From assembly GCF_003044035.1 (NCBI RefSeq), contig NZ_NVQC01000022.1:330001-362000 (forward strand): a stretch of 32,000 nt of DNA. Reading direction: 5' to 3'. The notes below the pieces were generated by a model. That model searched no databases. It was given only the letters and a program-made list of their open reading frames with translations, and was not told the origin of the DNA. Of this stretch, positions 4,551 through 31,774 are shown in pieces; position 1 is the stretch's first letter; each line of letters starts with the position of its first letter. Position numbers and translations under genes: made by a program. Source of the DNA: Candidatus Methylomirabilis limnetica. GTDB taxonomy: Bacteria; Methylomirabilota; Methylomirabilia; Methylomirabilales; Methylomirabilaceae.

Positions 4551-4740
4551 ACTCTTCTGCCTCCTGTTCTGGTTGATCGTGATCTGTGAGTGATCCACTA
4601 CAGATTTAAAAACACTCGCCGCTTCCAGAATACCAATGCGCGTCGTTTCACCTCCTTCTTATCTTCCCCCCCAAGTTATCACCTATTCTTCGCGTCCTCG
4701 CCATCCATCTCTCGAGCAGCGGTTGAAAAAACGTTGACTG

Positions 4741-5599: not shown

Positions 5600-5727
5600 T
5601 TCTTGCACCCCTCACCCTCACCCTCTCCCGCCAGGGGAGAGGGGACATGAATGACCTCGCGCTTCGCGCCACGCGCACAAAAACCCCTGGACCCCCCTTT
5701 TACAAAGGGGGGGAGGGGGGATTTCAC
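5600..5727. repeat. Family-B hairpin repeats
   Basis: Contains ccctctcccgccaggggagaggg and ccccccttttacaaaggggggg..ggggggatttc. The same motif class occurs at 7125-7175, 7546-7656, 14998-15108, 16384-16443 and 24326-24388. Confidence 0.7.
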
Positions 5728-11387: not shown

Positions 11388-11562
11388 TTCATTTTCGTTG
11401 AGGGTCGATACCCCGCGGCTTGCCGCGAGTTCGTCATACCGGCGGAAGCCGGTATCCAAGGGCCCGACTGGATTCCCCCGTATCCAGTACGGGGCAGGCG
11501 TGTCAAGCACGGAATGACGGGCCAGAACAGAAGACGATACCCTGCGGCTTGCCGCGGGGAGG
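11388..11562. repeat. Family-C multi-hairpin element (~175 bp), copy 1
   Basis: Hairpins are ccgcggc-tt-gccgcgg (twice), ataccggc-gga-agccggtat, ccccgta-tccag-tacgggg and cgtg-tcaag-cacg. The reverse complement is roughly 95 percent identical by eye to 29127-29303. Confidence 0.85.
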
Positions 11563-13639: not shown

Positions 13640-14716
13640 CTAGGGCACCGTAGTCAGCAGGGACCAGGATCCTGGCGACACGGCCGGCGTTGTGCCAAGG
13701 GCCGTGTGTTCCACCGCTATCAAATCGGCTGCGGCAAACGTCACGTTGCTTGAGACGAGGCAGTTATCGACAGTATCAGAAATCGTACAGGTCAGCGTGG
13801 TAGCAGCCCCACCATTCCGGACAGTGAACTTACGACTCTGACTAGCACCAGGGCCAACTTTTAGCTTCACCCGCATGACGCTGACGGTGCTCGCAGGTAC
13901 AGGGACCGAGACGTCAGTCGATGCCACAGTACTATTGCCATTACCTGGACCCATCCAGCGAAGAGCGGTACCAAGGTCGGCTCCACCTGACCCGCCGGTC
14001 AGGAGACTCCTGACATTCGGTCCTGCTGGGCCAGTTGCACCTGTGGCGCCCGTGGCACCAGTTGCACCCGTGGCGCCTGTGGCGCCTGTTGAGCCTGTGG
14101 CACCTGTGCCACCTGCGGCACCTGTGGCGCCCGTGGCACCAGTTGCACCCGTGGCGCCTGTTGAGCCTGTTGAGCCTGTTGAGCCTGTGGCACCTGTTGA
14201 GCCTGTCGGTCCGGCTGGTCCTGTTGGTCCTGTTGCGCCAGTTGGTCCTGTCGGTCCGGCTGGTCCGGCTGGTCCGGCGGCGTCAAGGTTCTCACTCGCC
14301 GCTACCCCTGCCATGACAAGACTGCCGCTGAAGGCCCCCACAAAGGGGAAGAGACGCGCCGGGCTGCCCTGTAGCGCCACCTGCCCCTGGATGTTGATCC
14401 CCTCTACGGTGCTGGTCGTCAGGTGCCCGGTGCTGTCTACTGAGTAGCTACCGGTGATGTTAAAAGGCGTCGTCGCCCCCCCAACCTCTTTCATGGACCC
14501 TACTATCGCCACCGTACCCGGATTGGCGCAGGGACTTCCGGGAGTAAAAGTCAACGTCCCGAGAGCCTGGGTAGGGATTCCGGGCTCCACCATGGTGCTG
14601 AAGGAATAGATCCCCGAGAGACTGCAGGAATCGGCTGTCCAGCCGGGTGTAGGCAGGATCAGCACGGCCGCGGTGAGCAGGCCGGCTAGGACCGTACTCT
14701 TGGTTCGTGTACGCAT
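13640..14716 (-). CDS. Secreted collagen-like triple-helix repeat protein (G-X-Thr rich)
   Basis: The start is set to ATG 14716 ([22 protein letters not shown]..), which has an aagggg Shine-Dalgarno. The protein has a signal peptide, an N-terminal domain of about 140 aa, 29 uninterrupted G-X-Y triplets (GPA/GPT/GAT/GST) and a C-terminal domain of about 115 aa. Confidence 0.9.
14018..14275 (-). repeat. Coding tandem repeat (G-X-Y triplets, 9-nt periodicity)
   Basis: 258 nt of ggn-nnn-acn type codons. A 44-nt block is exactly duplicated 81 nt apart, at 14037-14080 and 14118-14161. Confidence 0.9.
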
Positions 14717-14896
14717 AAAGCGCCCCCTTTTCTGTCTACGGTTTACTGGCTCCCTCTTCGCGAAGGAGACACCAACAGAGGATCGTGAAACTACGCTTTG
14801 AATTATCAACCAACAACCCTGATAAAAAGAGTACTCAGGTCACCACACTGCCTGAATGTAACAGACTACGAGCAGGAAAAGAAGATCAGGAGAGTC

Positions 14897-16450: not shown

Positions 16451-17125
16451 TCACGGTGCGCGATGCGTCTTGCGCCTCCCGCTCGTTTTTCCTCTCCATC
16501 CGGGAGTGCTCCCCTCGTCAGCGGCACGCACCTCCTCTGGAATTCCACCGAAAAACCAATACAGGGCCATCCAGATCAACACCGGTAAAAGCTGACTCGC
16601 CATCGACAGGTAGAAGTTCGTCCCCCAGACAGAGAGGCGACCGGCAACGCTCTGAAAGGCTTCAAGTTCAGGCTGCTGAAAGAATTTCATGCCGATCACA
16701 AGGTACAGTATGTGTGTCAAAAACAGAACACCCAACGCGATCGTCAGACTTACACACCGGCGCCTCCAAGCAACGTGCCGCTGGGCCAATACAAGGCCAG
16801 TCATGAGAACGAGATTGAAGTGAGTCAAATAGCCTGTGAATCCCTGGATCTTCATCCCTTCCGTAAAAGGGCGATCCGAGCGCATAATTAAAATATTGCC
16901 CTTCCAACCCACGAGGCTATGAACACGAGGGGCCTCTGTGACGGCAAGCAGGACATTGGCGCCGGAGGCGAGAAGGCGGTTGTAGCCGGGGGTGATGACG
17001 AACCACAGGGGGAGGATGAGGCAGAAGACCAGGAGAAACCGGCCGGCAAACGCCAGCAGCGCTTTAGTGTCGGGGAGCACCGACAAACCGCTCCGTCCAG
17101 TAGATCCAGGCCAGAAGGGCGGCAA
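16451..17125 (-). CDS. Polytopic membrane protein co-transcribed with the exosortase (possible exosortase-H-associated membrane protein)
   Basis: About 5-6 hydrophobic helices. The ORF overlaps the exosortase stop at 17064. The ORF-track start is TTG 17125, and GTG 17080 is an alternative. The family assignment comes from context only. Confidence 0.55.
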   Translation of the reverse strand: MPPFWPGSTGRSGLSVLPDTKALLAFAGRFLLVFCLILPLWFVITPGYNRLLASGANVLLAVTEAPRVHSLVGWKGNILIMRSDRPFTEGMKIQGFTGYLTHFNLVLMTGLVLAQRHVAWRRRCVSLTIALGVLFLTHILYLVIGMKFFQQPELEAFQSVAGRLSVWGTNFYLSMASQLLPVLIWMALYWFFGGIPEEVRAADEGSTPGWRGKTSGRRKTHRAP

Positions 17126-17576
17126 AGATGATCAACGATTGCCAAATCAGTAGATGGGCAGTCTCGAAGAATGACGGAAAATAGCGGCCGATATACATGA
17201 GACTGACCACTCTAATGAGGTTTAAAGAGAGGATCACTGATGCCCCCAGCAGAACCCCCTTGAGTTTCTCTGTCGCCCGACTTGGATAGGCCAGGACTGC
17301 TGACACGTAGATCGCCACGACAAAGATGCCGGTGCACACATCGTCGATCCGAGCCGCAAACCCCTCAACCTGGAGGATAGTTCCCGAAGTCGTGGCCTTG
17401 AGGGACAGGAGGTTCAGGACGAACCCGCTGACTGCGGCAAACGCCAGCGCCAGCGGCTGCCCGACAAGCTCCCGCATGATGCTTGTTCGTAGGAGCGTGT
17501 AAAACACGATGATGCACACCAGGAAGGTGATACATGCCCTGACCACTGGCTTATTTAGACTAAGTCGTTGCTCCAT
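17064..17576 (-). CDS. Exosortase/archaeosortase family protein, short form (XrtH-like)
   Basis: 170 aa with about 5 TM helices. The family signature residues occur in order: catalytic Cys in DDVCTGIF, Arg in LNLIRVVS and His in ETAHLLIWQ. An IPTLxxWG-like substrate is encoded in the same locus at 27938-28837. Confidence 0.8.
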   Translation of the reverse strand: MEQRLSLNKPVVRACITFLVCIIVFYTLLRTSIMRELVGQPLALAFAAVSGFVLNLLSLKATTSGTILQVEGFAARIDDVCTGIFVVAIYVSAVLAYPSRATEKLKGVLLGASVILSLNLIRVVSLMYIGRYFPSFFETAHLLIWQSLIIFAALLAWIYWTERFVGAPRH

Positions 17577-18736: not shown

Positions 18737-19495
18737 TCACCGTAGGGGTGTTGCGCGTTGCGGGGGTTCGGTGGCGAGCCTTTGTCGGATACGCCAAAGG
18801 TCCACCAACATCTGCACGGGGTGACGCAGCAGGCTCACCTGACTGCTCGGATCATTGATCCAGCGCACCGGCATCTCACATACGGCATATCCCAACTGCA
18901 TCGCGATAAGGATAGCCTCGACGTCGAAGGCAAAGCCGTCGATACGCGCGTATTGGAAGACCGCGTGCGCCGCCTCGCGCCGAAACAGCTTGAAACCGCA
19001 CTGCGTATCCCGAAAAGGGATCGAGAGGTAGACCCGCAGGAGGCGATTGAACAGCTTCCCCATCAATTCCCGCAGGCGAGTCTGACGCACCAGTATCTGC
19101 GATCCTACCAGCGCGCGTGAACCGATCACAAGATCGCTACCCTCCGAAAGGAGCTTCAAGGCTCCATCTACCTCCTCAATGGGTGTGGAGAGATCCGCAT
19201 CCGAGAACAGCACGACCGCTCCCGTGGCCGCCATCATACCGGCCCGAATGGCGGCGCCCTTGCCCCGGTTCTGTGAGAAGCGAATCAGCCTCAACTCCGG
19301 CGCGCGCGCCATGAATTGTTCCACGACGGCGACCGTGCTATCGCGCGATCCGTCATCCACTACAATCATCTCGAACCCGCCCGCCCCGTATCGGGACCGC
19401 AAATAGCCCCACACCCGCTGGAGCGATGGGCCGATCCGACTCGCCTCATTGTACGTGGGAATCACTACGCTTAATTGAATCGCCTCTTGCCCCAT
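18737..19495 (-). CDS. GT2 glycosyltransferase, dolichyl/polyprenyl-phosphate beta-glucosyltransferase (ALG5)-like
   Basis: Motifs are LSVVIPTYNE, VVDDGSRDST, SDADLSTP (DXD) and the downstream RDTQCGFK typical of the DPG-synthase subgroup. The start overlaps the upstream gene by 50 nt. Confidence 0.8.
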   Translation of the reverse strand: MGQEAIQLSVVIPTYNEASRIGPSLQRVWGYLRSRYGAGGFEMIVVDDGSRDSTVAVVEQFMARAPELRLIRFSQNRGKGAAIRAGMMAATGAVVLFSDADLSTPIEEVDGALKLLSEGSDLVIGSRALVGSQILVRQTRLRELMGKLFNRLLRVYLSIPFRDTQCGFKLFRREAAHAVFQYARIDGFAFDVEAILIAMQLGYAVCEMPVRWINDPSSQVSLLRHPVQMLVDLWRIRQRLATEPPQRATPLR

Positions 19496-22061
19496 ATATG
19501 TCCCGTTGAAACGCTCGCGGACGACGCACGCTGAGTTTCAGGCGACCGTCACCAATACTATTGAAATAGTCCAGTCGAAAATCGTACACGCCGGCGTTCA
19601 GATGTAGGGCGGCGTTCTTCTCTCGATACGTATGGCTTCCACCATTATCGAGCACGATCGCGCCATCGAGGTACAGAAGACTTCCGTCATCTGAACCAAG
19701 GTCGAATCGGTACATCCCGGACTCAACAATGCGCATCCGCCCTTCAAGGCGTAAGGAGAAAGGCGGATCCCAAGGATGCGCCGACAACCCGGGTGTCCGT
19801 ATCCAATGGGCTTCAACCGATTCCCCTACCCGAATTTCCCGCCCTGCCTCTGTGTTCTCGCCGCTCCAGTTGACGGCGTGATAGTACCGGCTTCTCAGCC
19901 CCTCAGGAAAGAACCGGGCAATAGGAAGGGTCTCAAAGCAACTGCCCTGCGGGTTCTGAAGCGCCTCATCACCAACCGGATAGACATCCGCAAGCAGACG
20001 TCCCATACGTCCTTCATCTGCATACGAGAGGTGAAACCGGTGGCTACCCTTTTTTAACATCAGTGAGCATTGCATGAGCTGGAAAGGATGCGTGCCACTG
20101 TTGTCCAAGAGGGTATGACCGTCCAGCGTGAGTACGGCGCCATCGTATGAGCCGAGTAGAAAGTTGTACGCGCCTTGCCTCATGATGTGGAGGGTACCGG
20201 AAAGTTCCAAAGAAAACGGCCCCCTACCCCAAGGTCTCTTGGCCAGATATGCAGTTGCTTCCATCGGATCTTCAACCCAGAGAAGATCGAGCGGGACGCC
20301 TCGCCAAGAGAACGGTCTGTTGTGAATGATACCATCCGCGTGCCGTTCGTACTTACTCACGCCGGTCTCGAGGACAAAACCTGGAGAGGGCGAACCCTTT
20401 AAAAATCTATTCGCAATCTTGAGCCGCATAAATCTGGATTCTTTTGGGGACTCCAGCCGTATCGTGAATCGTTTGCGAATCTCAGCAAAGATCCTGACCG
20501 ATTCCAATTCGTAGATCGATTTGTCTGCTACACGCCGGTACATAGGGTGAAAATCCTGAAGGTAATAGACCGTGAATGCCTCTGGAGGCGTCGGACTGCC
20601 CGGATGAATGCTGTCCAGGAACGCTTCCAGCGTTGCCAACGGGCGAATTGGAAGGCATGAGTAGCGGCATTGGGTCGAACCAAACACAAAGACGGAGTCC
20701 ACAAAACGTTTGTGACCGAGGCTTAAGTACAGTCGCTCTAGCGCACCCGCGGGATCAGTGGTGTTCTCGGGGTAGGCAGAGAAGTTATAAACAAGCAGCA
20801 GCTTTTCTCCCGCGTTGACTCTTGAGCGGGCCTCCAAATACCAATTTACTTCCGACGCGGGCACGAGATAGTCCGCCTGAGAATAGGTAAAGGGCATCGG
20901 GTAGCGCCGCTCATCAACGGGTAGCTTCATGTAATTGACGAGATCTGCCATCTGCCAGATATTACCCAAGCACAGCAACGCAATGAGTACGACCTTCGGC
21001 CTCTCCCCAAATCGCGACATCCCGGCGGATTCGCAGAACATGCCGACGACCGCCACGATGCAATAGAACTCAACCAGCAGAAATCGTCTCGGACGCAGCC
21101 AATCGGCGCCTTGCATCCCCAGCACAACGACTAACCCGATCTGAAACATGAGGAGGCTCAGGAAGAACCACCGATTGCGTTTGAGAAAGAAGAGGCTAAA
21201 TAGTCCCAGTACAAACAGGACCGGGCTGTCGAGTAACTGATCATAGAAAAGCGCTTTGGCAAGATTCGCAATACTTGCGCTGATCGCATCAATCGTCACC
21301 GAACCGGAATGAACGACGGCTCCTACGTTCCCTCCCGGATATGAGAGGATCGTAGCAAGTTGAACCGTAGCGCCCAGAAGCCATATAATGCGTGTGCGAA
21401 GAGGGACATGTCGATGGAGGACAGCCGCCGCGATAAAGACTACAAACAATGATTTGCCGAGTTCGTACAGGTGCCATGACAGTTCGTTGGCAACCAGACA
21501 CAGAACGAGGCTTAATATCCAGTTGCGGCGAACCCGATTGTCTAAGGTAATCCACAGCGCAAGTGCGTGAGGTAGTAAGCCCGTAACATATGGATAGCCC
21601 GCAACAGAGAAGGAAAGCAGAGCCGGCGACGCGCCCCATGCGAGAAGCAGAATCCAGAATTGACGGATTGGAAGACCGATGAGCCGTATAACGAGCCACA
21701 GTGTCAGGACGAAGAGGGCGAAGGTAAGCAGGTGCGCCCAATACTCCCATGGCCATAGCGACCCTAGGTAGCCAGGAATCAACGTGTAGAGAAGGCTGTT
21801 GGTGTGATTCCAATATTGGAAGTGCCGTGTGGAATGGACTACGGATATGACGGCGTCCCAAAACGATCGAGTAGATACCAGAAACAGCCCATGGGCCGGG
21901 CCGAGCACATCCCAACCCGGATAGTAAGGGCCTCGGTACACCACACGCATCCACAACGAAAAGCTAATGCTGAATACGGCGAAGGAGGAGAAGGCGAGAA
22001 AGGCTGCGCGGCTTGAAAGCGGCGCGTTCTGCGGGTCACGTGCGTCATCCTTGTTCAGCAT
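19446..22061 (-). CDS. Polytopic membrane protein (GT-C-like N-terminal half) with two C-terminal PA14 domains
   Basis: 871 aa with about 11-12 TM helices in the first ~400 aa. Two PA14/GLEYA-type segments follow: G.YNFLLGSYDGAVLTLDGHTLLDNSG..L.L.KGSHRFHLSY and GMYRFDLGSDDGSLLYLDGAIVLDNGG..LHLNAGVYDFRLDYF. Confidence 0.75.
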   Translation of the reverse strand: MLNKDDARDPQNAPLSSRAAFLAFSSFAVFSISFSLWMRVVYRGPYYPGWDVLGPAHGLFLVSTRSFWDAVISVVHSTRHFQYWNHTNSLLYTLIPGYLGSLWPWEYWAHLLTFALFVLTLWLVIRLIGLPIRQFWILLLAWGASPALLSFSVAGYPYVTGLLPHALALWITLDNRVRRNWILSLVLCLVANELSWHLYELGKSLFVVFIAAAVLHRHVPLRTRIIWLLGATVQLATILSYPGGNVGAVVHSGSVTIDAISASIANLAKALFYDQLLDSPVLFVLGLFSLFFLKRNRWFFLSLLMFQIGLVVVLGMQGADWLRPRRFLLVEFYCIVAVVGMFCESAGMSRFGERPKVVLIALLCLGNIWQMADLVNYMKLPVDERRYPMPFTYSQADYLVPASEVNWYLEARSRVNAGEKLLLVYNFSAYPENTTDPAGALERLYLSLGHKRFVDSVFVFGSTQCRYSCLPIRPLATLEAFLDSIHPGSPTPPEAFTVYYLQDFHPMYRRVADKSIYELESVRIFAEIRKRFTIRLESPKESRFMRLKIANRFLKGSPSPGFVLETGVSKYERHADGIIHNRPFSWRGVPLDLLWVEDPMEATAYLAKRPWGRGPFSLELSGTLHIMRQGAYNFLLGSYDGAVLTLDGHTLLDNSGTHPFQLMQCSLMLKKGSHRFHLSYADEGRMGRLLADVYPVGDEALQNPQGSCFETLPIARFFPEGLRSRYYHAVNWSGENTEAGREIRVGESVEAHWIRTPGLSAHPWDPPFSLRLEGRMRIVESGMYRFDLGSDDGSLLYLDGAIVLDNGGSHTYREKNAALHLNAGVYDFRLDYFNSIGDGRLKLSVRRPRAFQRDIYGARGDSIKRSDSHVQ

Positions 22062-22164: not shown

Positions 22165-22914
22165 TCACCTCCTGGTCGCCTGGCGGCCCTTTATGCACAC
22201 CTGCAACCACAGTAGAAACAGGCTGCCGAAGCGATAGAGGCCCTCGTGGAGAAGGTTGAACCGGCTCTTTCGCCGATCGTCGCACCAGACCGGCACCTCA
22301 ACAATGACGGCGCCATCGCGTTGACCCCAAGCGATGAGTTGCAGGATATAGGCGCTCTGGTCGGCCAAATACGGGAGATATGGCCGTATGGAGTCGATCC
22401 GAAATGCCTTGGCGCCGATCGAGTAGTCCGTAAACTCGAGGTGAAGCAATCGGCGCGTGCAGGCGATGAATGCCGCGCTCGCCATGTGTCGGATCCGCGA
22501 GCGCTGCTGCCCCCCGGTCTGCTTGGAGCCGATGACGATGTCCGCCGTGTCGAGTGTTGCCGCTGCGGCCGTGATGAAGTCGAGATCGATGGTGAGGTCG
22601 AGATCGAGACACACCACCCGGTCATACTGCGCGCGCGTAATCCCGGCCTTGAATGCGCGGCCCACCCCGCGCTGCGGTAATTCAATCACTGTGAGGTCCG
22701 TACACCCCACCGCACATGCCCTGGCGATCTCGACGGTCCGGTCGGTCGAGCCATTGCTTATCAGGAGCAGTTCATACGCCGTAATCTCTCGGTCCTTCAG
22801 GCAGCGCCTGAGGCGGTCGACGTTGGCGGCAAGAATGGCTTCTTCGTTATACGCCGGGAGGATGAATGTCAGTGGAGCTCGGCGTTGGTGAGCATCACGC
22901 GAGTCTTGGGGCAT
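22165..22914 (-). CDS. GT2 family glycosyltransferase
   Basis: Motifs are LTFILPAYNEE, LISNGSTDRT and an acidic LDLDLTIDLD motif. The start is ATG, and the gene begins 9 nt after the radical SAM stop. Confidence 0.8.
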   Translation of the reverse strand: MPQDSRDAHQRRAPLTFILPAYNEEAILAANVDRLRRCLKDREITAYELLLISNGSTDRTVEIARACAVGCTDLTVIELPQRGVGRAFKAGITRAQYDRVVCLDLDLTIDLDFITAAAATLDTADIVIGSKQTGGQQRSRIRHMASAAFIACTRRLLHLEFTDYSIGAKAFRIDSIRPYLPYLADQSAYILQLIAWGQRDGAVIVEVPVWCDDRRKSRFNLLHEGLYRFGSLFLLWLQVCIKGRQATRR

Positions 22915-22923
22915 GGCGGGGGC

Positions 22924-24282
22924 CTAGGAGAAGGCCGGTCGCACGTAGTCCCAGAACAGTGCGGCCTGTCGGCGCCAAAGGTGAAGGTCTACCCGGCGAA
23001 TCCTGGACCAGAGCACCGCCGGTCGCAGGTAGAACTCGCGGAAGGCCCGGTCGGCGACGGCCTGAAGGAGACGGGGATCGTGCTCCTTGCTCAGCACGTC
23101 GGGGAACAGTTCCGAGGCGCCGCTCATCTCGTACAGCGTCGTGCCCAGGTAGGGAGTCACGGCATGAAACGACGCATAGGTTGGGTTCAGTCGCTTGGCA
23201 AATGCGATTGTCGCCTCCATATCCTCGGCGGTCTCTCCCGGAAAGCCGAACATGAAGAAACAGACCTGATCGATTCCTGACTGCTTCGTCTCTGCAATTC
23301 CCCGTTCGATCTGCTCAAGAGTAATCCGCTTGTTAGTTTCGGCAAGAATTCTGGCTGAACCGCTTTCCACGCCGAAGTGGATGAGCCGACAGCCGGCCCG
23401 CTTCATCAATTGCAGAAGCGGCCCGTCCACATAATCGGCCCTGGTCTGGCACGCCCACTCGAAGGATAACTTCGCTGACGCCAGTCGTTCACAGAGATCC
23501 CAGACGTCGTCGCGGACCGCAGTAAACTCGAGATCGATGAAGTAGCCTGTCTCGGCTCCTGCCTCTCGAACCAGATACGTCACCTCACGGATAACCTGCT
23601 CAGGATCTTTCTTACGGTAGCCTTTGCCGTACATCTTGAGGAGGCAGAAAGAACATCGATAGTGACAACCGCGCGTCGCTTCAAGTAGGGCAAACCTGCC
23701 GCCGAGGACTTCGTAACGGTAGTTGCGGAGGTCGAGGAGATGAAAAGCGGGCAGTGGCAGGGTTGTCAGATCTATGGGGTTTCCTTCCGGGGTATTGATG
23801 AGCGTGCCCCCTTGCAGATAGCTAATACCCGGCACCTCGGAAGGATCTTTGCCATCACAGAGCGCTCGGACCGCCAGTTCAGGCTCACCACGGATCACGG
23901 CCCGCGCCCGCGTCATGTTGAGAAGTTCGCCAGGCGCAACGGTCCCATGTGTCCCCATGACGTACAGCTTGTCGGGTTCTACCAGATGTGTAACGGCCAG
24001 GAATGGGCTGAGATCAAGGTTGGGGCATTGCCACCGATCAATCGGCGCTGAGGTGATAAACACCAGATCGTGCTGCGTCGCGGCGTCTCGAATCGCATCG
24101 AGTGGGGTGGGCGTGGCGCGGGCATCGATGATGCTGGCGCTATGTCCATCCTGTTCCAGCAGTGCCGCGCAGTTCAGCAGGTCAAGGGGAGGCCATGTCC
24201 GATTGAACCGGCGTCCTTTTCGGCTTACCAGCCCGTCCCAGCTCGGATTGACCAGCAGGACTTTCAGTCGCCTTCCCGCCAT
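22924..24282 (-). CDS. B12-binding domain radical SAM protein (class B)
   Basis: The N-terminus KVLLVNPSW.. has a Rossmann-like cobalamin-binding domain layout. The radical SAM cluster motif is present as ATRGCHYRCSFC (CxxxCxxC). Confidence 0.85.
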   Translation of the reverse strand: MAGRRLKVLLVNPSWDGLVSRKGRRFNRTWPPLDLLNCAALLEQDGHSASIIDARATPTPLDAIRDAATQHDLVFITSAPIDRWQCPNLDLSPFLAVTHLVEPDKLYVMGTHGTVAPGELLNMTRARAVIRGEPELAVRALCDGKDPSEVPGISYLQGGTLINTPEGNPIDLTTLPLPAFHLLDLRNYRYEVLGGRFALLEATRGCHYRCSFCLLKMYGKGYRKKDPEQVIREVTYLVREAGAETGYFIDLEFTAVRDDVWDLCERLASAKLSFEWACQTRADYVDGPLLQLMKRAGCRLIHFGVESGSARILAETNKRITLEQIERGIAETKQSGIDQVCFFMFGFPGETAEDMEATIAFAKRLNPTYASFHAVTPYLGTTLYEMSGASELFPDVLSKEHDPRLLQAVADRAFREFYLRPAVLWSRIRRVDLHLWRRQAALFWDYVRPAFS

Positions 24283-24388: not shown

Positions 24389-25684
24389 GGCAGTGTAAAT
24401 AAATAAAGGTATCAACTTCGCTCTGTAGCTTTTGGTCTTATGACGTAGTTCCAGTCGCCATGAAACTTATTACGTTCCACATTGATGCGCTTCATCTCTT
24501 CATCGCTAACCTTGCGTCCGGTTGGATATTTCCGGCGATCCAATCTACACGTCACTTTCAGCCCCTTCGCCGTGGTCGTCCTGGCGATGAGATTGACGAT
24601 CGTTTCGTAATCCCGCAACGGTTCACCACGCCAATTTGACGTGATAAAGGAAAACAGCCGGTGTTCGATCTTGTTCCATTTGCTGGTGCCGGGAGGAAAA
24701 TGACAGACGGAAAGGCACATGCCGGTTTGATCAGCAAACTTCTGCAACTCCAACTTCCAAAGCCGCAACCGCGACCCATTGCTCCCCCCGCCGTCGGCAG
24801 TGATCAGAAGCGTTGCCGTATCCGGATACAGCCGTCGTCCTTCAAAATGCCACCACCCGCGAATCGAGGCCACGGCAAATTCTCCAGTGTCATGGTCGGT
24901 CCCCACATTGACAAAACCGGCGTTGCGTCCGAGGTCGTAAATACCATACGGATAGGCGCGTGGCACTTCTGGGCTGGGGAAGTCGTGACCTTGAACTTTT
25001 TTGGGCTGCTTTGCCGGAAGCCATTGCTGACCGGCATTGTTGTAGTTGCCGATGAGTTCCTTCTTTTTTGTGTCCACCGAAATCACAGGAATGCCTTGCG
25101 CCAGGCGTCTCTTTACCGCAGCATTGATGTGCCGAAATTGCGCATCGCGGTCGGGGTGGTCTGTGCCCTCCTCGGTCTTCCGATTGCTCTGCAGACTATA
25201 GTTCAGATCGTGAAGAATCTGCGCGACCTTTGCATGGCTGACCGGGTGCTTGTTCCTGCCAAGCTGCCTGGCAATCGCCCGCGTGCTTTTACAAATCCAT
25301 CGCAGGGGGGACTGTGGATCGCCTCGCGTTTGGCCATCAATCATCTCTTCCAATGCATCCAACAGACGTGGGTCGGAAACGGTGATGGACTTGCGCCCTG
25401 CTCCGGGACAACGGATGCGACCTTCCGATGGCACTATCCCTTCTTGAATTTCGCGGACTCCTTTGGCGATGGCCCGTCGCGACAATCCACACGCGCGATG
25501 CACCACAGAGATTCCACCAAAGCCCAAACTCACGGCTTCATTAGCAGCCATGATGCGGCGCGTGCGCTCGTCCAAAAGCGGCCACACAGAACGAAACTTC
25601 CGTCTCAACTCGGGCAGGGTGTTCATGCTCAAGAAGCATACCACCACAACTCATAGATTGATACCTTTATTTATTTACACTGCC
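24389..25684 (-). mobile_element. ISAzo13-family insertion sequence (1296 bp)
   Basis: Perfect 27-bp terminal inverted repeats ggcagtgtaaataaataaaggtatcaa lie at 24389-24415 and, as reverse complement, at 25658-25684. They are flanked by the direct repeat TTA (24386-24388 and 25685-25687). The element holds a single transposase ORF. Confidence 0.9.
24412..25626 (-). CDS. ISAzo13 family (Rhodopirellula-type DDE) transposase
   Basis: The start is set to ATG 25626 (MNTLPELRRKF..). The N-terminal LDERTRR..AANEA..LG.GGIS......G.SR..I..G..E and the C-terminal DDE region (SVDTKKKE, ITADGGGSN, HFPPGTSKWNKIEHRLF) fit this family. Confidence 0.88.
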   Translation of the reverse strand: MNTLPELRRKFRSVWPLLDERTRRIMAANEAVSLGFGGISVVHRACGLSRRAIAKGVREIQEGIVPSEGRIRCPGAGRKSITVSDPRLLDALEEMIDGQTRGDPQSPLRWICKSTRAIARQLGRNKHPVSHAKVAQILHDLNYSLQSNRKTEEGTDHPDRDAQFRHINAAVKRRLAQGIPVISVDTKKKELIGNYNNAGQQWLPAKQPKKVQGHDFPSPEVPRAYPYGIYDLGRNAGFVNVGTDHDTGEFAVASIRGWWHFEGRRLYPDTATLLITADGGGSNGSRLRLWKLELQKFADQTGMCLSVCHFPPGTSKWNKIEHRLFSFITSNWRGEPLRDYETIVNLIARTTTAKGLKVTCRLDRRKYPTGRKVSDEEMKRINVERNKFHGDWNYVIRPKATERS

Positions 25685-27859
25685 TTAGGAGGGATTTTCT
25701 AAGGAACTGTATCTTTTCCTCGAAAGAAATACAAGCGTTTCAGCGAGGAGCAACGCGATTCCGGCCGCTGTGGCAACCCGTCCAACATAATCAGGCCAGC
25801 GATTGCCGAAGACGAGCCGGACCTGCTTGGCCGTGGGATAGACCAGCATGAATGATGGTGACACCAGATAGATCCGATCGGCGCCCTCAACGCGCCATTT
25901 CGGGTGATACGAGACCTTGATCAGGTGCGGGCGACCAGGGCACTCGGTCTCAAACCGAACCTCCTCATTGCCCAAGGCGTCTTTCACGTGGCATTCGGGC
26001 GAAAGGACCTGTTTAACGGGCTCCTCCATTAAGTCACGAAACGGCACGACTCCCGGCGGTACCGGATCGCCGGGTCGTGGGAAAAGGAGCGGTACCTCCA
26101 GCCATTCCGGTTTTTGGAACCAGTCATAAGCGAGTCGTTTCCAGTCGCCATCGGTCACGAGGGCAGGCTGGTATCGAAGCGGTACAACATACTGGCCGTT
26201 GCCTTGACGGACCTGGAAGATCTTGTAGGGTCCGATTTCCCCCTCCTCGCGGTACCCAGGATTCGACCCCAGGGCAGCCTTCACCCTATCCGTGACGGCA
26301 ATCACCTCTTTGACGTTGAACAGCTCCAAATGGGCGAGTGCCCGCTCCGGGTCGAATGGCGAACATTTGTAGGGAACGAAGGGACAAGAAGGAGTGTCCG
26401 TTAGTTCAGACTGGATGTAGAACACGAACGGGGAGGTCGGAGAGGACTGCATGTAGGCCCCTTCGAGCGTTGGGCGGCCCGATATAAGGGGGAGAGCCTC
26501 AAAAGCCCTGATCGTACCGGCCTTATCATGGAGAACCGAATGTTGGTACACGACTCTGGGACTGTGGGGGCCGCCTGGTAGCGCAATAGAATTCACGACA
26601 ATAAAGTATCGCCACCACGGTGTCTGCTCCATTCCGGAAAAATTCCACTGGATCCATTTGGGGATAAACGACACCTGAGGCATGACCCAGGCGATAGTCA
26701 TCACGGCGATGACGACAGGCGCCGCTCGCCAGAGTGAACGCGGTAGCCGCATCAGAAGTCCACCGAGACCGGCTGCGGCCAAGAGGACGAGAAAAAACTG
26801 CGCAAAGGCCAGGAACCTGACATCTACAAGGTTCAGCCAGGGTGAAACAAAATACAGGGTGACCGATAGCACCACAGGGTAGGTCAGGTAGTAGATCATC
26901 CGAAGCCATCCCTTGTCGCTAAATTTCCCCCGCAGTGTCAAGGCTACTGTGACCGCCGCAATGACGATGATGGGCCATAGCACGACCGGAACGATCTCCA
27001 GGATAGATGTAAACTCCCAGGTAATGGAGAACCCGGTAGTGTAAGGAAGGTACCAGACGAGCGGAATCAACCAGAATCCCAGCAGCAGCCCGCCCACAGC
27101 ATACACCCGCACCAGGTACAGGAGCGTCATCCGGAACTCCGAGGTCACAGCAAGGAAGTACAGCCCCATACCCGCCGCCATCACCATCCCGTATCCGTGC
27201 GCTAATCCGGTAAGGGCGAAGAGTACGGCACACCAGCCTGCGTACCGCCGCTCAAGGACGCCTCGGTACAGTGCACCCATGAATAATACGAGGAGCGTAA
27301 GTGAGAGGCTGTGAGAAAACTCGCCGGCCAGCGTGCTCGGAATGTTTCCACCCCACATGCTGTTGCCTGCGTTCAGCAGGAATGGAAGGGTCAGAACGGC
27401 GCCAAGCGCAGGAATGGGGAACGGACATCCGATCCAGCGGAGCGCAACGAGGGAGGCGATCGGGAGCCCGAAGGTTCCGGCGATAGTCCCCAGCTTAAAT
27501 GCAATAGGGAATGAGACGACAAGACTGAACCCGGCGATCAGCAGGAAGGCAAGGGGAAAATAGAAAAGGAAGAGGGGATAGCCGGCGAGGTTGCCCGGCA
27601 TCCAGCCAATAAGCTTTCCATTAGGCAAGAGGTAATCCCGCAGATATCTTGCCGCGACATAGTGTGCGATGGTGTCGCCACCGCCAGTGATAGTCGGCTT
27701 GAAAAGGAGGGAGGGTTTAAGGTACCAGAGAAGGAGTCCGTAGGTCAGCAGGAGGGCCAAGAGCGTGCTCACTCTCTCAACCCATCCGGGATATCTTCCC
27801 GTTGGAACTGCGTCGGGTTCGGCGGAGGCTGTACGTACAGATTCGCGAACGTCCAGCAT
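25685..27859 (-). CDS. Large polytopic membrane protein with C-terminal extracytoplasmic domain (GT-C / YfhO / PTPS-related-like, unconfirmed)
   Basis: The start is set to ATG 27859, because the ORF-track TTG 27877 lies inside the upstream terminator stem. About 13 TM helices begin with GGDTIAHY in the first loop. A soluble domain of about 300 aa and a final TM follow. The last codons and the stop derive from a family-B repeat. Confidence 0.6.
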   Translation of the reverse strand: MLDVRESVRTASAEPDAVPTGRYPGWVERVSTLLALLLTYGLLLWYLKPSLLFKPTITGGGDTIAHYVAARYLRDYLLPNGKLIGWMPGNLAGYPLFLFYFPLAFLLIAGFSLVVSFPIAFKLGTIAGTFGLPIASLVALRWIGCPFPIPALGAVLTLPFLLNAGNSMWGGNIPSTLAGEFSHSLSLTLLVLFMGALYRGVLERRYAGWCAVLFALTGLAHGYGMVMAAGMGLYFLAVTSEFRMTLLYLVRVYAVGGLLLGFWLIPLVWYLPYTTGFSITWEFTSILEIVPVVLWPIIVIAAVTVALTLRGKFSDKGWLRMIYYLTYPVVLSVTLYFVSPWLNLVDVRFLAFAQFFLVLLAAAGLGGLLMRLPRSLWRAAPVVIAVMTIAWVMPQVSFIPKWIQWNFSGMEQTPWWRYFIVVNSIALPGGPHSPRVVYQHSVLHDKAGTIRAFEALPLISGRPTLEGAYMQSSPTSPFVFYIQSELTDTPSCPFVPYKCSPFDPERALAHLELFNVKEVIAVTDRVKAALGSNPGYREEGEIGPYKIFQVRQGNGQYVVPLRYQPALVTDGDWKRLAYDWFQKPEWLEVPLLFPRPGDPVPPGVVPFRDLMEEPVKQVLSPECHVKDALGNEEVRFETECPGRPHLIKVSYHPKWRVEGADRIYLVSPSFMLVYPTAKQVRLVFGNRWPDYVGRVATAAGIALLLAETLVFLSRKRYSSLENPS

Positions 27860-27868
27860 GACCGCTCC

Positions 27869-27904
27869 AAAAAGCAAGAACGGGGCTTAACGCCCCGTTC
27901 TTGC
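27869..27904 (-). terminator. Rho-independent terminator of the 27938-28837 gene
   Basis: On the minus strand, the stem gcaagaacgggg / ccccgttcttgc with a ~7-nt loop is followed by TTTTT. It lies about 35 nt after the stop. Confidence 0.75.
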
Positions 27905-27937: not shown

Positions 27938-28837
27938 TTACTGCAGGTGATTTCTTCGAGCTCTCACCATCCAAGCCATCGCACCCAGGAACGCCGCTCC
28001 CAACACCATCATTCCCCAGTTACCGACCGTCGGGACCACCGGAATCGTCGTCGTGGTGGTCGTCGTGGTCGTCGTGGTCGTCGTGGTGGTGGTTACCGTA
28101 ACGCTGGTGGTATCAGAATCGCCTGTGGCGTTATCAACAAGGCTGCCAGCTGCGACGTCGAAGCCCGCGCCGCCGCCGGATACGTTCAGCGTCCCTGCGG
28201 TGTTCGGGGTGATGAACGAATTCCCATTATAGACAAAGAGGATGCCCTGGTTCAGACTCAAGCTGATCCCGTCGACAGGCTGTGCGGCAGCATCAGCAAT
28301 CGAACACGTGGCGGTTCCCCCAAACCCATACACGCTGTCGCCACAATTCACGTTGTTCGTGATGCTGGCGACAGGGGCGAGCGCGCTGATCAGTGTCAGG
28401 CCGGCATCACCGAATCCAGCCACCGTGGTGGCGCCAGAGGCCCATGACCCGGCACCAGTGGCAGAGAAGGTCACGGCGGGCGTGCAGGCGGCCAGCGACA
28501 GGGTCCCGGTCCGCTTCCCCTGAGCCAGAGCGGTAAGAGGGGTCGCCGGTACCTTGGCAATCAGGGTAGTCCCGCTGCTGACGGTTTGAACCACCGTCGC
28601 CGCAGAATTGAAGGCGATAGACATTGAGACGTTGGTCAGACGGTCATGATCGGTCCCAGCCGGCTGTGCATCCGAACAGAGGTACTGATAGACGGTTCCA
28701 TCGCTGGCAATGTCGATGCGCTGCTGCACCCGTGCATCGACACTCATCGGGGCGATAACCGTTCCCGCAAGGATCGCGGGGGCCAGCAGAGACAGAGCCA
28801 ACTTCTTGCTGAAAGCAACTCTTGCTCTAGAACTCAT
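27938..28837 (-). CDS. Secreted protein with poly-Thr linker and IPTLxxWG-CTERM-like sorting signal
   Basis: A ggaggag Shine-Dalgarno precedes ATG 28837, and the signal peptide ends SVDA. The mature domain is about 200 aa and Ala/Thr/Gly-rich. It is followed by 16 consecutive Thr codons (28046-28093), then IPVVPTVGNWGMMVLGAAFLGAMAWMVRARRNHLQ: a motif, a TM helix and a basic cluster. Confidence 0.85.
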   Translation of the reverse strand: MSSRARVAFSKKLALSLLAPAILAGTVIAPMSVDARVQQRIDIASDGTVYQYLCSDAQPAGTDHDRLTNVSMSIAFNSAATVVQTVSSGTTLIAKVPATPLTALAQGKRTGTLSLAACTPAVTFSATGAGSWASGATTVAGFGDAGLTLISALAPVASITNNVNCGDSVYGFGGTATCSIADAAAQPVDGISLSLNQGILFVYNGNSFITPNTAGTLNVSGGGAGFDVAAGSLVDNATGDSDTTSVTVTTTTTTTTTTTTTTTTIPVVPTVGNWGMMVLGAAFLGAMAWMVRARRNHLQ

Positions 28838-29126
28838 CCTTGCTCCTCCTTGCCCCCAACCTACAGGGCATAGCCTTCAACGTTGAGTACCACTAAGACC
28901 ACGAACCTAACATATAATCGAATGCATCATCAAGCGGCGCAGAAGCTGTACCGAAATTCTCCGATCTCTCGCCTCCCTTCGCCCCCAACACATGGAGTAC
29001 TATTGCCGTGCAACGCAAGTAGATCAATCCTGGAGCCTAAACCCGCTGCCTTGATACCATGCCTCCTTTTCGCCTGTCAAGTTTTTTATTTCTCTGCGAA
29101 AGCTCTGGTATTCTGTCAGGGATGAA

Positions 29127-29303
29127 CTACCCCGCAGCAAGCTGCGAGGTATCGTCTTATGTTCTGGCCCGTCATTCCGTGCTTGACACGCCTGCCCCGT
29201 ACTTGATACGGGGGAATCCAGTCGGGCCCTCTGGATACCGGCTTCCGCCGGTATGACGAACTCGCGGCAAGCCGCGGGGTATCAACCCTCAACGAAAATG
29301 AAT
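29127..29303. repeat. Family-C multi-hairpin element, copy 2 (inverted relative to 11388-11562)
   Basis: Its reverse complement aligns base-for-base with 11388-11562, apart from a handful of substitutions. Confidence 0.85.
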
Positions 29304-29686: not shown

Positions 29687-30592
29687 ATGATGCGTCGCGG
29701 TGCCATTATCGTCATCCTCTTGGGTGCGATCATCGCCTTTGCGTTCTCGCGGGCGGTCGACGCGGCCACTAATGCTGAGCTTGTTCCAGGATCGAGGATC
29801 GTCTTCCCCTACTATGACCTGCGACCTGGATTCGCGACCTTCCTGTTCCTGACCAACATCAGCTCAGCCCCCGTATCTGTGGCCTTGGAGCTTTACGATA
29901 CGTCGGGCGCCCGCCAGGGCACCAACATAGACCTTTCAGCGCGCGACATCGATTCGCTCGACCTGTCCGAGATGATCTCCGGTAACGCATCCGATGGCTT
30001 TTTGCAGGGCTTCGTCGATGTCACCACGAGCGCGGACGTCCTGATAGGCACAGCGGTTGTCGTCAATATGGATGACGACTGGGCGATCACGTATAATGGG
30101 GCGTCGGCTCGCCGGCAAACGGCCGGCACGACACCCTTCGAACCGTACCCGACAGGTCTCTTGTTACCCGCGTTCCTGACCCCTGGACAACTTGGCGGTG
30201 GTACGCTGGCCGATGGCCTGCTGATCGTCGCCGCACCCCACCCAACCCGTCCCGGCGGCAAGCTACCGGATAAACCTATTCGGGCTTCGGCCGAGATCTT
30301 TCTGCGGCAGGAGCTCACCGCCGTGAGCAGCGACCAGCAAAGCACTCACGAGATAATCCAAAGCTCTTCCAGATTCAGCGGACGCCACATCATCCTGCCG
30401 ATAGGGACAGTTGTCGGCACCTTCCCCTCTCCGACGTTGGGATGGCTGTCTCTTAGGAATCATGTGGTGGACAAAAATGGCATCCCTTTCGGGCTGGTTG
30501 GTCTGTACATTCAGACATTGATCGGGCCGAGTAGCGCCTCCGGGATGGCCATTCGGCTCTCCGGTGATCCGTCCGCTGACACAACTCAATAG
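29687..30592 (+). CDS. Secreted protein of unknown family (paralog of 3267-4550)
   Basis: The signal peptide is MMRRGAIIVILLGAIIAFAFSRAVDA. The mature N-terminus ATNAELVPGSRIVFPYYD..FLFLTNIS, plus LELYD..NIDLSARDIDSLDL, GFVDV..VLIGTAVV, FEPYP..LLPAF and GLVGLYIQ..IRLSGD, match blocks in the 3267-4550 product. Confidence 0.8.
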   Translation: MMRRGAIIVILLGAIIAFAFSRAVDAATNAELVPGSRIVFPYYDLRPGFATFLFLTNISSAPVSVALELYDTSGARQGTNIDLSARDIDSLDLSEMISGNASDGFLQGFVDVTTSADVLIGTAVVVNMDDDWAITYNGASARRQTAGTTPFEPYPTGLLLPAFLTPGQLGGGTLADGLLIVAAPHPTRPGGKLPDKPIRASAEIFLRQELTAVSSDQQSTHEIIQSSSRFSGRHIILPIGTVVGTFPSPTLGWLSLRNHVVDKNGIPFGLVGLYIQTLIGPSSASGMAIRLSGDPSADTTQ

Positions 30593-30646: not shown

Positions 30647-31774
30647 ATGAAGATCTGCCTCGTCGGCCCCTTCCCCCCTTTACGAGGGGGGATCGCCCAT
30701 TATAACGCCCAGCTCGGGCTGGAGCTGATGACGCGTCACGAGATCGCGGTGATCTCCTTTTCGCGCCAGTATCCGGCCATACTGTTTCCTGGGCGAACGC
30801 AGTTCGACACGGGCTCCCCGCCTGTGGGGCTCACTAGTGAAGCGATCCTCGACTCAATTAATCCTCTGAGCTGGCTCCGTACCGGCCGCCGGATCGCTGA
30901 GATCGCTCCCGACTTGGTTATTGTTCACTGGTGGCACCCTTTCTTCGGCCTGTGCCTCGGGACGACAGTGAGCCTGGCCAGAAGGCGATCTCGCGCCAGC
31001 GTCATCTTCATCTGCCACAATGTTGTTCCGCACGAACCGTTTCCCTTGGCGAGCGGACTGACAAGGTTCGCGCTGGCCTCAGGCGATGCGTGGCTCGTCC
31101 ACTCCGAGACCGACCGACAAGATCTGGAGTCGCTCAATCTGCGAGGCCACACACTTCTGGTCCCTCAACCTCCGGGGCAAGGGTTCGGAGCACCGATCGA
31201 CAAAGAGGAGGCGAAGAGTCGTCTCGGCCTTTCCGGAAATACCCTTCTCTTCTTCGGCCTGATCCGTAGCTACAAGGGGCTTCCAGGATTGCTCGAGGCG
31301 ATGCCCCTCGTGCTCCAAAAGGTGAACTGTACCCTCCTCGTGGTCGGAGAGTTCTACGAGGGGAAGGACCGCTGCCTGAGCCTCATCAGCGACTTGGGCC
31401 TCGCGTCGCACGTCCGGGTCATCGATCGCTTCGTTCCGGACAACGAGGTCAGCCTCTACTTTTCCGCAGCCGACCTGGTCGTGCTCCCCTACGAATCGGC
31501 CACACAGAGCGCCATCGTCCCGATCGCCTTTGCCTTCGAGCGGCCCGTGGTGGCCACTCGCGTGGGCGGGCTGCCGGAGGCGGTCCGTGACGGCGAAACC
31601 GGCCTTCTGGTAGAGCCGCGCAACCCAACCGCGTTGGCGGAGGCGATCATCCGCTTCTACGAGGAAGACATGGGGGGCATATTTCGCCGGCATATCCTGA
31701 AGCAGCAGCGCTTTTCCTGGGGCGAACTGGCCGCCACGCTGGAGACTGCGGCGATCAGCCGTACTTCGCAGTGA
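30647..31774 (+). CDS. GT4 family (Glycos_transf_1) glycosyltransferase
   Basis: The N-terminus MKICLVGPFPPLRGGIAHY and the C-terminal motifs LLVVGE, ADLVVLPY..ATQSAI and GGLPEAV.DGETGLLVEP match the GT-B retaining GT4 signature E-x7-E region. Confidence 0.85.
   Translation: MKICLVGPFPPLRGGIAHYNAQLGLELMTRHEIAVISFSRQYPAILFPGRTQFDTGSPPVGLTSEAILDSINPLSWLRTGRRIAEIAPDLVIVHWWHPFFGLCLGTTVSLARRRSRASVIFICHNVVPHEPFPLASGLTRFALASGDAWLVHSETDRQDLESLNLRGHTLLVPQPPGQGFGAPIDKEEAKSRLGLSGNTLLFFGLIRSYKGLPGLLEAMPLVLQKVNCTLLVVGEFYEGKDRCLSLISDLGLASHVRVIDRFVPDNEVSLYFSAADLVVLPYESATQSAIVPIAFAFERPVVATRVGGLPEAVRDGETGLLVEPRNPTALAEAIIRFYEEDMGGIFRRHILKQQRFSWGELAATLETAAISRTSQ

Follow-up and report, generated by a model that had tools for sequence, protein, structure and literature searches.

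We analysed a stretch of 32,000 nucleotides from the methane-oxidising bacterium Candidatus Methylomirabilis limnetica (contig NZ_NVQC01000022.1, positions 330,001 to 362,000; hereafter, the window), in which a gene on the minus strand (27938..28837) encodes a secreted surface protein of 299 residues. The protein is the cargo of a predicted sorting system that includes exosortase H (XrtH), and is a probable surface-layer (S-layer) subunit. The cargo gene is probably CLG94_09015, as judged from numbering alone, because it lies between the genes for PTL35879.1 (CLG94_09010) and PTL35881.1 (CLG94_09020). Nine neighbouring proteins of the window are identical to M. limnetica entries CLG94_08945 to ~09025.

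The cargo protein begins with a Sec-type signal peptide (residues ~1-35, MSSRARVAFSKK; 28733..28837, minus strand). The hydrophobic core of the signal peptide (residues 13-31) is computed, and its n-region and an A-x-A-like site, which places the probable cleavage between SVDA and RVQQ, are read by inspection. The mature domain (residues 36-248; 28094..28732, minus strand) is rich in Ala, Thr, Gly, and Ser and contains four Cys residues. AlphaFold2 predicts an all-beta fold from an alignment of eight sequences of the cargo family, with a predicted local distance difference test score of 49, which is unreliable. Pfam and NCBIfam scans find no family match for the mature domain, and a profile search of the PDB with the cargo protein finds no relative. 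The exact protein is present on eight public contigs. Full-length homologs number seven among 5.8 billion clusters, five full-length clusters plus fragments are found among 1.84 billion representatives, and the cargo domain matches weakly inside giant proteins of 1800-2200 residues.

The mature domain is followed by a stalk of 16 consecutive Thr residues (249-264; 28046..28093), the signature motif IPV-VPTVGNWG (residues 265-275; 28013..28045), a hydrophobic transmembrane helix with the sequence MMVLGAAFLGAMAWMV (residues 276-291, M276-V291; 27965..28012), and the basic cluster RARR (residues 292-295) with the last four residues NHLQ (27941..27964), all on the minus strand. The signature motif is the presumed recognition and cleavage region of XrtH, and the basic cluster forms the cytoplasmic end of the sorting signal. 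The TAA stop codon occupies 27940..27938. The tripartite layout of VPTVGNWG (residues 268-275), helix, and RARR is therefore at the extreme C-terminus, four residues from the stop. A poly-Thr 16-mer combined with a motif, a helix, and a basic cluster at the very C-terminal end goes far beyond what chance would produce.

The original prediction had placed an IPTL-CTERM-like sorting signal with a poly-Thr stalk at 27938-28093, coordinates whose ends coincide exactly with the stop codon and the first Thr codon, and both the sequence and the NCBIfam model TIGR04174 (IPTL_CTERM) bear this architecture out. The whole protein scores 25.5 bits on TIGR04174 (curated cutoff 20.5, E = 1.2e-5), and the match spans positions 1-27 of the 27 model positions and residues 268-294 of the cargo, inside which the helix falls. 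The last 51 residues score 28.1 bits on their own. The Pfam model PF18203, whose match also includes the helix, gives 20.2 bits on the whole protein, marginally under its cutoff of 20.8, and 25.2 bits on the isolated tail. Judged by its sequence, the tail is a genuine, somewhat divergent IPTL-CTERM signal near the edge of the model. In accordance with the further claim that no other open reading frame (ORF) in the window has such a tail, a six-frame scan of the 32 kb for [IVL]P[TAS][LVMI]xx[WFY]G returns no second one, and the window contains no other Thr run of six or more residues.

The cognate enzyme that had been named for this signal, exosortase H, is encoded in the window itself (17064..17576, minus strand), 10.4 kb from the cargo gene. 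The protein has 170 residues and five hydrophobic segments, and is identical to PTL35872.1/WP_107562763.1, 'exosortase H [Candidatus Methylomirabilis limnetica]'. It scores 91.5 bits on TIGR04177 (cutoff 86) and 54.6 bits on the family signature TIGR04178 (cutoff 23). The next-best subfamily models, archaeosortase B and XrtX, give 72 bits vs a cutoff of 150 and 65 bits vs 170, respectively. Residues Cys81 (DDVCTG), Arg122 (NLIRV), and His141 (TAHLLIW) are conserved in three orthologs; Cys, Arg, and His are the suspected catalytic triad of exosortases and archaeosortases (Haft, bioRxiv 10.1101/2023.06.07.544157). The 3' end of xrtH is overlapped by an ORF for a conserved membrane protein of ~210-224 residues (16451..17125, minus strand), which is 71-79% identical at the same position in four related loci (L007, L009, L010, and L047) and has no Pfam or NCBIfam family match. 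This protein may be an uncharacterised partner of XrtH.

Two other memberships were considered for the cargo and its enzyme and rejected. The midcut-by-XrtH family (NF033207) gives 20 bits against a cutoff of 45 and matches in the tail only, and the motif of the cargo is C-terminal. For the PGF-CTERM/archaeosortase A system, there is no PGF-CTERM match at E<=10, and XrtH scores 32 against 75 on the archaeosortase A model.

Comparison of the window proteins with all fetched loci by tblastn indicates that the cargo and XrtH genes form one conserved cluster in related contigs. In locus L049, the genes for the cargo, the PTPS_related protein, a B12-binding radical S-adenosylmethionine (SAM) protein, a GT2 glycosyltransferase, and XrtH lie within 5.5 kb. 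In L047, the order is GT4 (on the opposite strand), cargo, PTPS_related, radical SAM, GT2, GT2, XrtH, and the overlapping membrane ORF, spanning ~9 kb from cargo to XrtH and ~10 kb overall. The distance from cargo to XrtH is likewise ~9 kb in L007, L009, and L010.

The counterparts in the window are arranged as follows. The gene directly downstream of the cargo gene (25685..27859, minus strand) encodes a polytopic membrane protein of 724 residues with a PTPS_related match (PF10131, 121.7 bits) and with no PDB relative by sequence. PF10131 is a member of the GT-C glycosyltransferase clan. The radical SAM protein (22924..24282, minus strand), which lies between PTPS_related and GT2 in L047 and L049, is 78% identical in these two loci, and its best partial matches, HpnJ and BchE, are far under the cutoffs. 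Next to it, as identified by family match and tblastn, is the conserved GT2 glycosyltransferase of 249 residues (22165..22914, minus strand). A second GT2 glycosyltransferase, of 252 residues (18737..19495, minus strand), is named dolichyl-phosphate beta-glucosyltransferase by NCBI and adjoins XrtH in L047; it may produce a lipid-linked sugar donor. A GT4 glycosyltransferase of 375 residues, encoded upstream of the cargo gene but on the plus strand (30647..31774), is 78-89% identical in L007 and L047. An ISAzo13-family transposase gene (24412..25647, minus strand; 577 bits) separates the PTPS_related and radical SAM genes. Because these two genes are adjacent in L047 and L049, the cluster of the window carries a recent insertion of an insertion sequence (IS). 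The cluster also contains a polytopic membrane protein of 871 residues (19446..22061, minus strand), which in family scans matches DUF6056 weakly and has two carbohydrate-binding PA14 domains at its C-terminus, and which is absent from the compact clusters of L047 and L049. The transposase and the PA14/DUF6056 protein account for the stretching of the cluster to 10.4 kb.

A scan of metagenomes of the Joint Genome Institute (JGI) with the pattern W-G-x3-L-G-x2-F-L-G-A-x2-W obtained 38 loci, 22 with true C-terminal tails (25-27 residues from the Trp to the stop) and 16 with chance matches. For 19 of the 22 true tails, the in-frame sequence upstream is long enough to be informative, and each of these 19 follows a Thr-rich tract (Thr content of 35-95% over the 40 residues before the tail), in the form of Thr runs of up to 32 residues or of (Thr-Ser)n repeats. 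Therefore, this tail subtype consistently comes with the stalk, which is not specific to one gene. In the family alignment, all members but one keep a Thr run followed by [VI][VI]PTVGNWGMM[VI]LG.AFLGA..WM[LV][KR]AR[RK]. The longest Thr run among relatives ranges from 2, in the (Thr-Ser)n stalks, to 32.

The stalk in the window is encoded by seven ACC and nine ACG codons. The original description of the tract as an irregular mixture of the two, and hence not a simple slippery repeat, holds only in part, as Tandem Repeats Finder detects a 9-nt unit in 4.8 copies with 91% match. The tract may therefore undergo in-frame slippage or recombination. A role as a frameshift-prone contingency locus was considered and rejected, because slippage of a 9-nt unit alters the length of the tract and not the reading frame.

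A separate observation concerns P0004, a JGI protein of 416 residues whose domain is 48% identical to that of the cargo. P0004 lacks the Thr stalk and the IPTL tail, and has an HYR domain and a helical C-terminus instead. Use of the lattice-type domain is therefore not restricted to proteins sorted by an exosortase.

The tail and the domain in front of it evolve differently. Eight aligned tails are 59-85% identical to the tail of the window, with P, G, N, W, and G invariant, and the domains to which they are attached are 37-78% identical or unrelated. Conservation of the tail over diverged and unrelated domains is what a recognition signal, rather than a plain anchor, would be expected to show. 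Amino-acid identity at related loci is 70-85% for PTPS_related, 78-89% for GT4, and 80-90% for XrtH, and only 31-75% for the cargo domain.

At some loci the domain is replaced altogether. In a metagenome-assembled genome (MAG) of Methylomirabilota (L006, JACQQF010000043) and in L023, the gene directly upstream of PTPS_related encodes an unrelated cargo of 293-310 residues, similar to P0008, with T×19 ahead of IPVVPTAGNWG. The same slot in L051 is taken by P0043, a third unrelated cargo. Thus three unrelated cargo types (the SLP family, P0008-like, and P0043-like) are found upstream of PTPS_related, with stalk and tail kept. At least four other types of tailed cargo occur in related metagenomes, including ice-binding-like proteins and a putative FN3 protein (JGI name). 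Sequence comparison of these loci shows a cassette-like replacement of the cargo domain at a conserved locus. The PTPS_related gene immediately follows the cargo gene in L006, L007, L011, L017, L023, L028, L029, L035, L039, L045, L047, L049, and L051. Its presence follows the stalk-and-tail module irrespective of the cargo domain, which makes PTPS_related the leading candidate for an enzyme with the module as its substrate.

Searches with the tail alone return little. A profile of the eight tails, used for a protein search, returned only short JGI fragments, and a DNA scan of genome collections for G-N-W-G-M..L-G..F-L-G-A gave a single match, in a Methylomirabilota MAG, and missed the contig of M. 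limnetica. In metagenome annotation, the isolated tail is predicted as tiny 'genes' (L014-L049, P0010-P0020), which pipelines label 'LPXTG-motif cell wall-anchored protein' (JGI) or 'cbb3-type cytochrome oxidase subunit 3'. The curated IPTL-CTERM models recognise too few of the tails of this clade, and a clade-specific model would correct such annotation artefacts.

A protein with the same architecture is the S-layer protein of a sister species. The S-layer of M. lanthanidiphila is formed by mela_00855 (VUZ84482.1), a protein of 316 residues and 31.6 kDa with an isoelectric point of 8.42 (Gambelli et al. 2021, PMC8671808). It has a signal peptide (residues 1-34) and an InterPro IPTL-CTERM domain (residues 285-312), is similar to no known families, and is encoded by a gene flanked by glycosyltransferase genes (PMC8671808). 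Its peptides cover all but the C-terminal tail, "a very hydrophilic sequence region" (PMC8671808). The cargo protein of the window likewise has a signal peptide, a domain of ~230 residues, a hydrophilic C-terminal region, an IPTL-CTERM signal, a mass of ~30 kDa, and glycosylation genes nearby. The two proteins come from the same genus, have 316 and 299 residues and signal peptides of ~34 residues, and end four residues after the IPTL-CTERM domain. Given the same architecture in the same genus, we regard the cargo as the probable S-layer subunit of M. limnetica, an assignment by analogy that we favour on balance. The cargo family differs from mela_00855 as described in being very divergent (31-75% among relatives) and in that non-homologous cargo can fill the locus. 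No match of 316 residues from NCBI appears in three homolog searches with the cargo or in the exhaustive search of representatives. P0002, when extended to an upstream TTG start, has 316 residues, 31.8 kDa, and an isoelectric point of 8.6, and an ORF of L045 has 317 residues and an isoelectric point of 8.41; both are inexact with respect to mela_00855.

Taken together, we consider with good confidence that the gene encodes an XrtH-sorted, Sec-exported all-beta surface protein of ~26 kDa, most likely the S-layer subunit, with a probably glycosylated Thr spacer. Several points weigh against this interpretation. There is one tailed ORF, a count that covers the window alone. The TIGR04174 score is just a few bits over the cutoff, PF18203 is 0.6 bit under its cutoff on the full protein, and seven sister tails (P0002, P0005, P0009, P0040, P0051, P0056, and P0069) miss TIGR04174 at E<=1e-3. 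We know of no experimental demonstration of cleavage by any XrtH, or of any IPTL-CTERM protein, and of no route by which exosortase substrates pass the outer membrane. The likeness to mela_00855 is drawn from a published description, and the only BLASTP match listed for mela_00855 is the M. oxyfera protein CBE67388, at 41% identity (PMC8671808). In addition, no glycans were seen on the covered part of mela_00855, and unpublished preliminary gels and stains seemed to exclude its glycosylation (PMC8671808).

The last point bears on the question of whether the stalk is glycosylated. The window encodes three GT2 glycosyltransferases, the PTPS_related protein, the DUF6056/PA14 protein, and two paralogous membrane proteins with PMT_2 and TMTC_DUF1736 regions and C-terminal TPR (7890..9740 and 11615..13633, minus strand; RgtA/B/C/D-like by UniRef name). 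The two paralogs are candidates for protein O-glycosylation. Their layout is the bacterial version of that of eukaryotic TMTC proteins, with protein O-mannosyltransferase-like regions; a PDB search with the TMTC-like protein matches only TPR structures. The Thr stalk is probably O-glycosylated by the adjacent membrane glycosyltransferases with lipid-linked sugars, and the original idea of a glycosylated stalk is plausible in this gene neighbourhood. Alternatively, the poly-Thr tract could be an unglycosylated spacer, with the nearby glycosyltransferases serving lipopolysaccharide (LPS), extracellular polymeric substances (EPS), or other glycoconjugates. This alternative has a substantial chance of being correct, somewhat short of even. 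It agrees with the glycan and stain results for mela_00855, none of the enzymes has a proven protein substrate, and the RgtA-D-like and ArnC-like annotations fit modification of lipid A or LPS as well. However, the tail including the Thr tract is the one region that proteomics missed, and an antiserum against mela_00855 detects a band near 90 kDa instead of 31.6 kDa, for which the authors allow extra modifications (PMC8671808). The association of PTPS_related with the stalk-and-tail module, the presence of two PMT_2/TMTC-type proteins in the window, and the Thr-rich disordered region in the equivalent position of archaeal S-layer proteins (PMC8559796) also argue for glycosylation.

Another possibility is that the cargo is an XrtH substrate but not the S-layer subunit, being instead an adhesin, an EPS-associated protein, or another surface or matrix protein, with the true S-layer gene elsewhere. 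Besides the descriptive nature of the likeness to mela_00855 and its single listed BLASTP match, this possibility draws on the weak occurrence of the cargo domain in the giant proteins, on the replacement of the tail by an HYR domain in P0004, and on the presence of the same tail on ice-binding-like proteins. We consider it rather unlikely, because genus, size, signal peptide, hydrophilic C-terminal region, and IPTL-CTERM signal all match those of a proven S-layer protein, and the flanking glycosylation genes are as described for mela_00855 (PMC8671808). The cargo gene also has a strong ribosome-binding site, with a Shine-Dalgarno-like AAGGAGG located 7 nt 5' of the ATG (28845..28851, minus strand), and a private terminator, with an intrinsic-terminator-like hairpin between the cargo gene and the next gene (27874..27904, minus strand; 13-bp stem with 9 G-C pairs, followed by TTTTT). 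Moreover, the domain diverges fast and is exchanged while its locus is conserved, as is typical of S-layer genes.

It is very improbable that the tail is a transmembrane anchor that is never cleaved, which would leave the protein in the cytoplasmic membrane, facing the periplasm. The helix and basic cluster would indeed serve as a stop-transfer anchor, and the lack of demonstrated cleavage for IPTL-CTERM proteins is compatible with such a role. However, P, G, N, W, and G are invariant across diverged and unrelated cargo, which is no requirement of a plain anchor, and an exosortase with intact Cys, Arg, and His is co-clustered. A stalk of 16 residues is also too short to bridge the periplasm and the outer membrane, and the IPTL-CTERM protein of M. 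lanthanidiphila sits outside the outer membrane (PMC8671808). Finally, there is next to no chance that the tail belongs to another sorting system (LPXTG/sortase, PEP-CTERM/XrtA, or MYXO-CTERM): the isolated tail reaches 15.9 bits on TIGR01167 (LPXTG_anchor), equal to the cutoff, matches PEP-CTERM and MYXO-CTERM weakly, and has the JGI labels noted above, but it contains no LPXTG, PEP, or Cys motif, these matches are confined to the helix and basic part (positions 9-34 of the TIGR01167 model), IPTL_CTERM is the best model and the sole one matched end to end, a scan of the whole protein leaves besides it only a PEP-CTERM family model at 12.5 bits vs a cutoff of 100, and the cluster encodes a single sortase-like enzyme, for which XrtH is the top-scoring model.

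For the XrtH-sorted, probably glycosylated S-layer subunit that we favour, maturation might proceed as follows. After Sec export, the precursor would be retained in the cytoplasmic membrane by the helix and RARR, and its stalk would lie on the periplasmic side. The membrane-proximal Thr tract would there meet periplasm-facing polytopic glycosyltransferases, which would use polyprenyl-phosphate sugars made by the GT2 enzymes. XrtH would then recognise [IV]PT[VA]GxWG, cleave at or near PTVGNWG, remove the helix, and probably transfer the new C-terminus to an acceptor. The protein would be released to the outer surface, where the Thr stalk, as a spacer, would keep the lattice domain and the anchor apart.

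A functional analogy links the system to the S-layer glycoprotein of Haloferax volcanii and its archaeosortase ArtA. The Thr-rich region of the H. volcanii protein is O-glycosylated. Both systems combine a lattice protein, a Thr-rich linker, a tripartite C-terminal signal, and a polytopic enzyme with Cys, Arg, and His. Many archaeal S-layer proteins have a Thr-rich disordered region between the lattice part and the anchor (PMC8559796), and ArtA removes the PGF-CTERM helix and mediates lipid attachment (PMC8559796; bioRxiv 10.1101/2023.06.07.544157). In contrast to the PGF motif and ArtA, the system in the window has an IPTLxxWG-like motif and a short bacterial XrtH of 170 residues, its cleavage and lipid attachment are only predicted, and its product must also reach the outer membrane, as M. 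limnetica is diderm. The analogy points to processing of a bacterial S-layer by an exosortase, in the way that ArtA processes the archaeal S-layer glycoprotein.

Compared with the generic IPTL-CTERM/XrtH system (TIGR04174/TIGR04177), both models are passed and the architecture and genomic co-occurrence are as defined. However, the motif here is [IV]PT[VA]G[NE]WG, in this clade it invariably follows a Thr or Thr/Ser stalk, the sortase gene clusters with the principal cargo gene, and the scores are near the cutoffs, with sister tails missed. PEP-CTERM proteins sorted by exosortase A, such as PepA of Zoogloea resiniphila, are also exosortase substrates of diderms and are associated with glycosylation and EPS loci, but have another motif and exosortase subfamily, are usually numerous per genome, and belong to the floc or biofilm matrix and not to an S-layer.

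The sorting system and the IPTL-CTERM domain on the S-layer protein of the sister species were already known. The description of mela_00855 notes this domain in one sentence, and mentions neither exosortase, XrtH, threonine, nor an anchoring mechanism (PMC8671808). New here are the tight link between cargo and XrtH, the obligatory Thr stalk, the conserved companion genes, and the cassette-like domain replacement. The original prediction is correct in its observation and its interpretation, and its call was largely to be expected. It had missed the sortase in the cluster of the cargo itself, the constancy of the stalk with the tail type, and the probable S-layer identity.

A broader proposal, which we put forward tentatively and regard as possible but doubtful, is that the Methylomirabilis S-layer would be the first bacterial one shown to be matured and anchored by an exosortase, with XrtH cleaving the IPTL-CTERM helix and coupling the protein via its O-glycosylated stalk to a lipid or glycan of the outer membrane, and with a hot-swappable cargo slot in a dedicated biogenesis cluster. 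If true, the cluster of cargo, PTPS_related, B12-radical-SAM, GT2, XrtH, and membrane partner would be the bacterial counterpart of the archaeal ArtA/PGF-CTERM pathway. Together, the clustered XrtH, the constant stalk, and PTPS_related yield a concrete and testable model of how a diderm bacterium might mature its S-layer. The model addresses the question of how S-layer sheets attach to the outer membrane, and could explain why the C-terminal peptide of the Methylomirabilis S-layer protein went undetected and why its band ran anomalously at 90 kDa. In M. lanthanidiphila, the distance between S-layer and outer membrane is constant, and the polygonal cell shape of Methylomirabilis is attributed to rigid S-layer sheets (PMC8671808).

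The 850-nt intergenic region 5' of the cargo gene contains a candidate promoter (29051..29080, minus strand), with a perfect TTGACA after an A-rich stretch, an 18-nt spacer, and TATCAA, which would give a leader of ~210 nt. It is absent from the output of a consensus scan, as its -10 hexamer ends in a base other than T. The same region contains an element of ~175 nt (29130..29302), which is an inverted copy (94-95%) of 11388..11559, and palindromes of the form GTCATTGCGAGC...GGCAATC, similar to repetitive extragenic palindromic sequences, which recur in the window (100, 1007, 15170, and 29462). Distinct CCCCCTTTTTCAAAGGGGG hairpins recur at 5679, 7547, 15000, 16371, and 24324. An Rfam scan of the window gives no matches.

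Farther from the cargo gene, the window encodes an IS110-family transposase (1388..2746, minus strand) and a secreted protein of 389 residues (13640..14809, minus strand) with a collagen-like Gly-X-Y region of ~100 residues made of GPT, GAT, and GST triplets. The DNA of the latter contains a 9-nt periodic array with 24 overlapping register copies (13977..14291). Two secreted paralogs (3267..4598, minus strand, and 29687..30592, plus strand) share the N-terminal block ELxPGSRxVxPYxD...LLFLTNxS, and have no family match apart from a weak one to DUF5719. The second paralog, of 301 residues, lies between the GT4 and cargo genes, and is also found beside the cargo gene in L011, with 89.5% identity.

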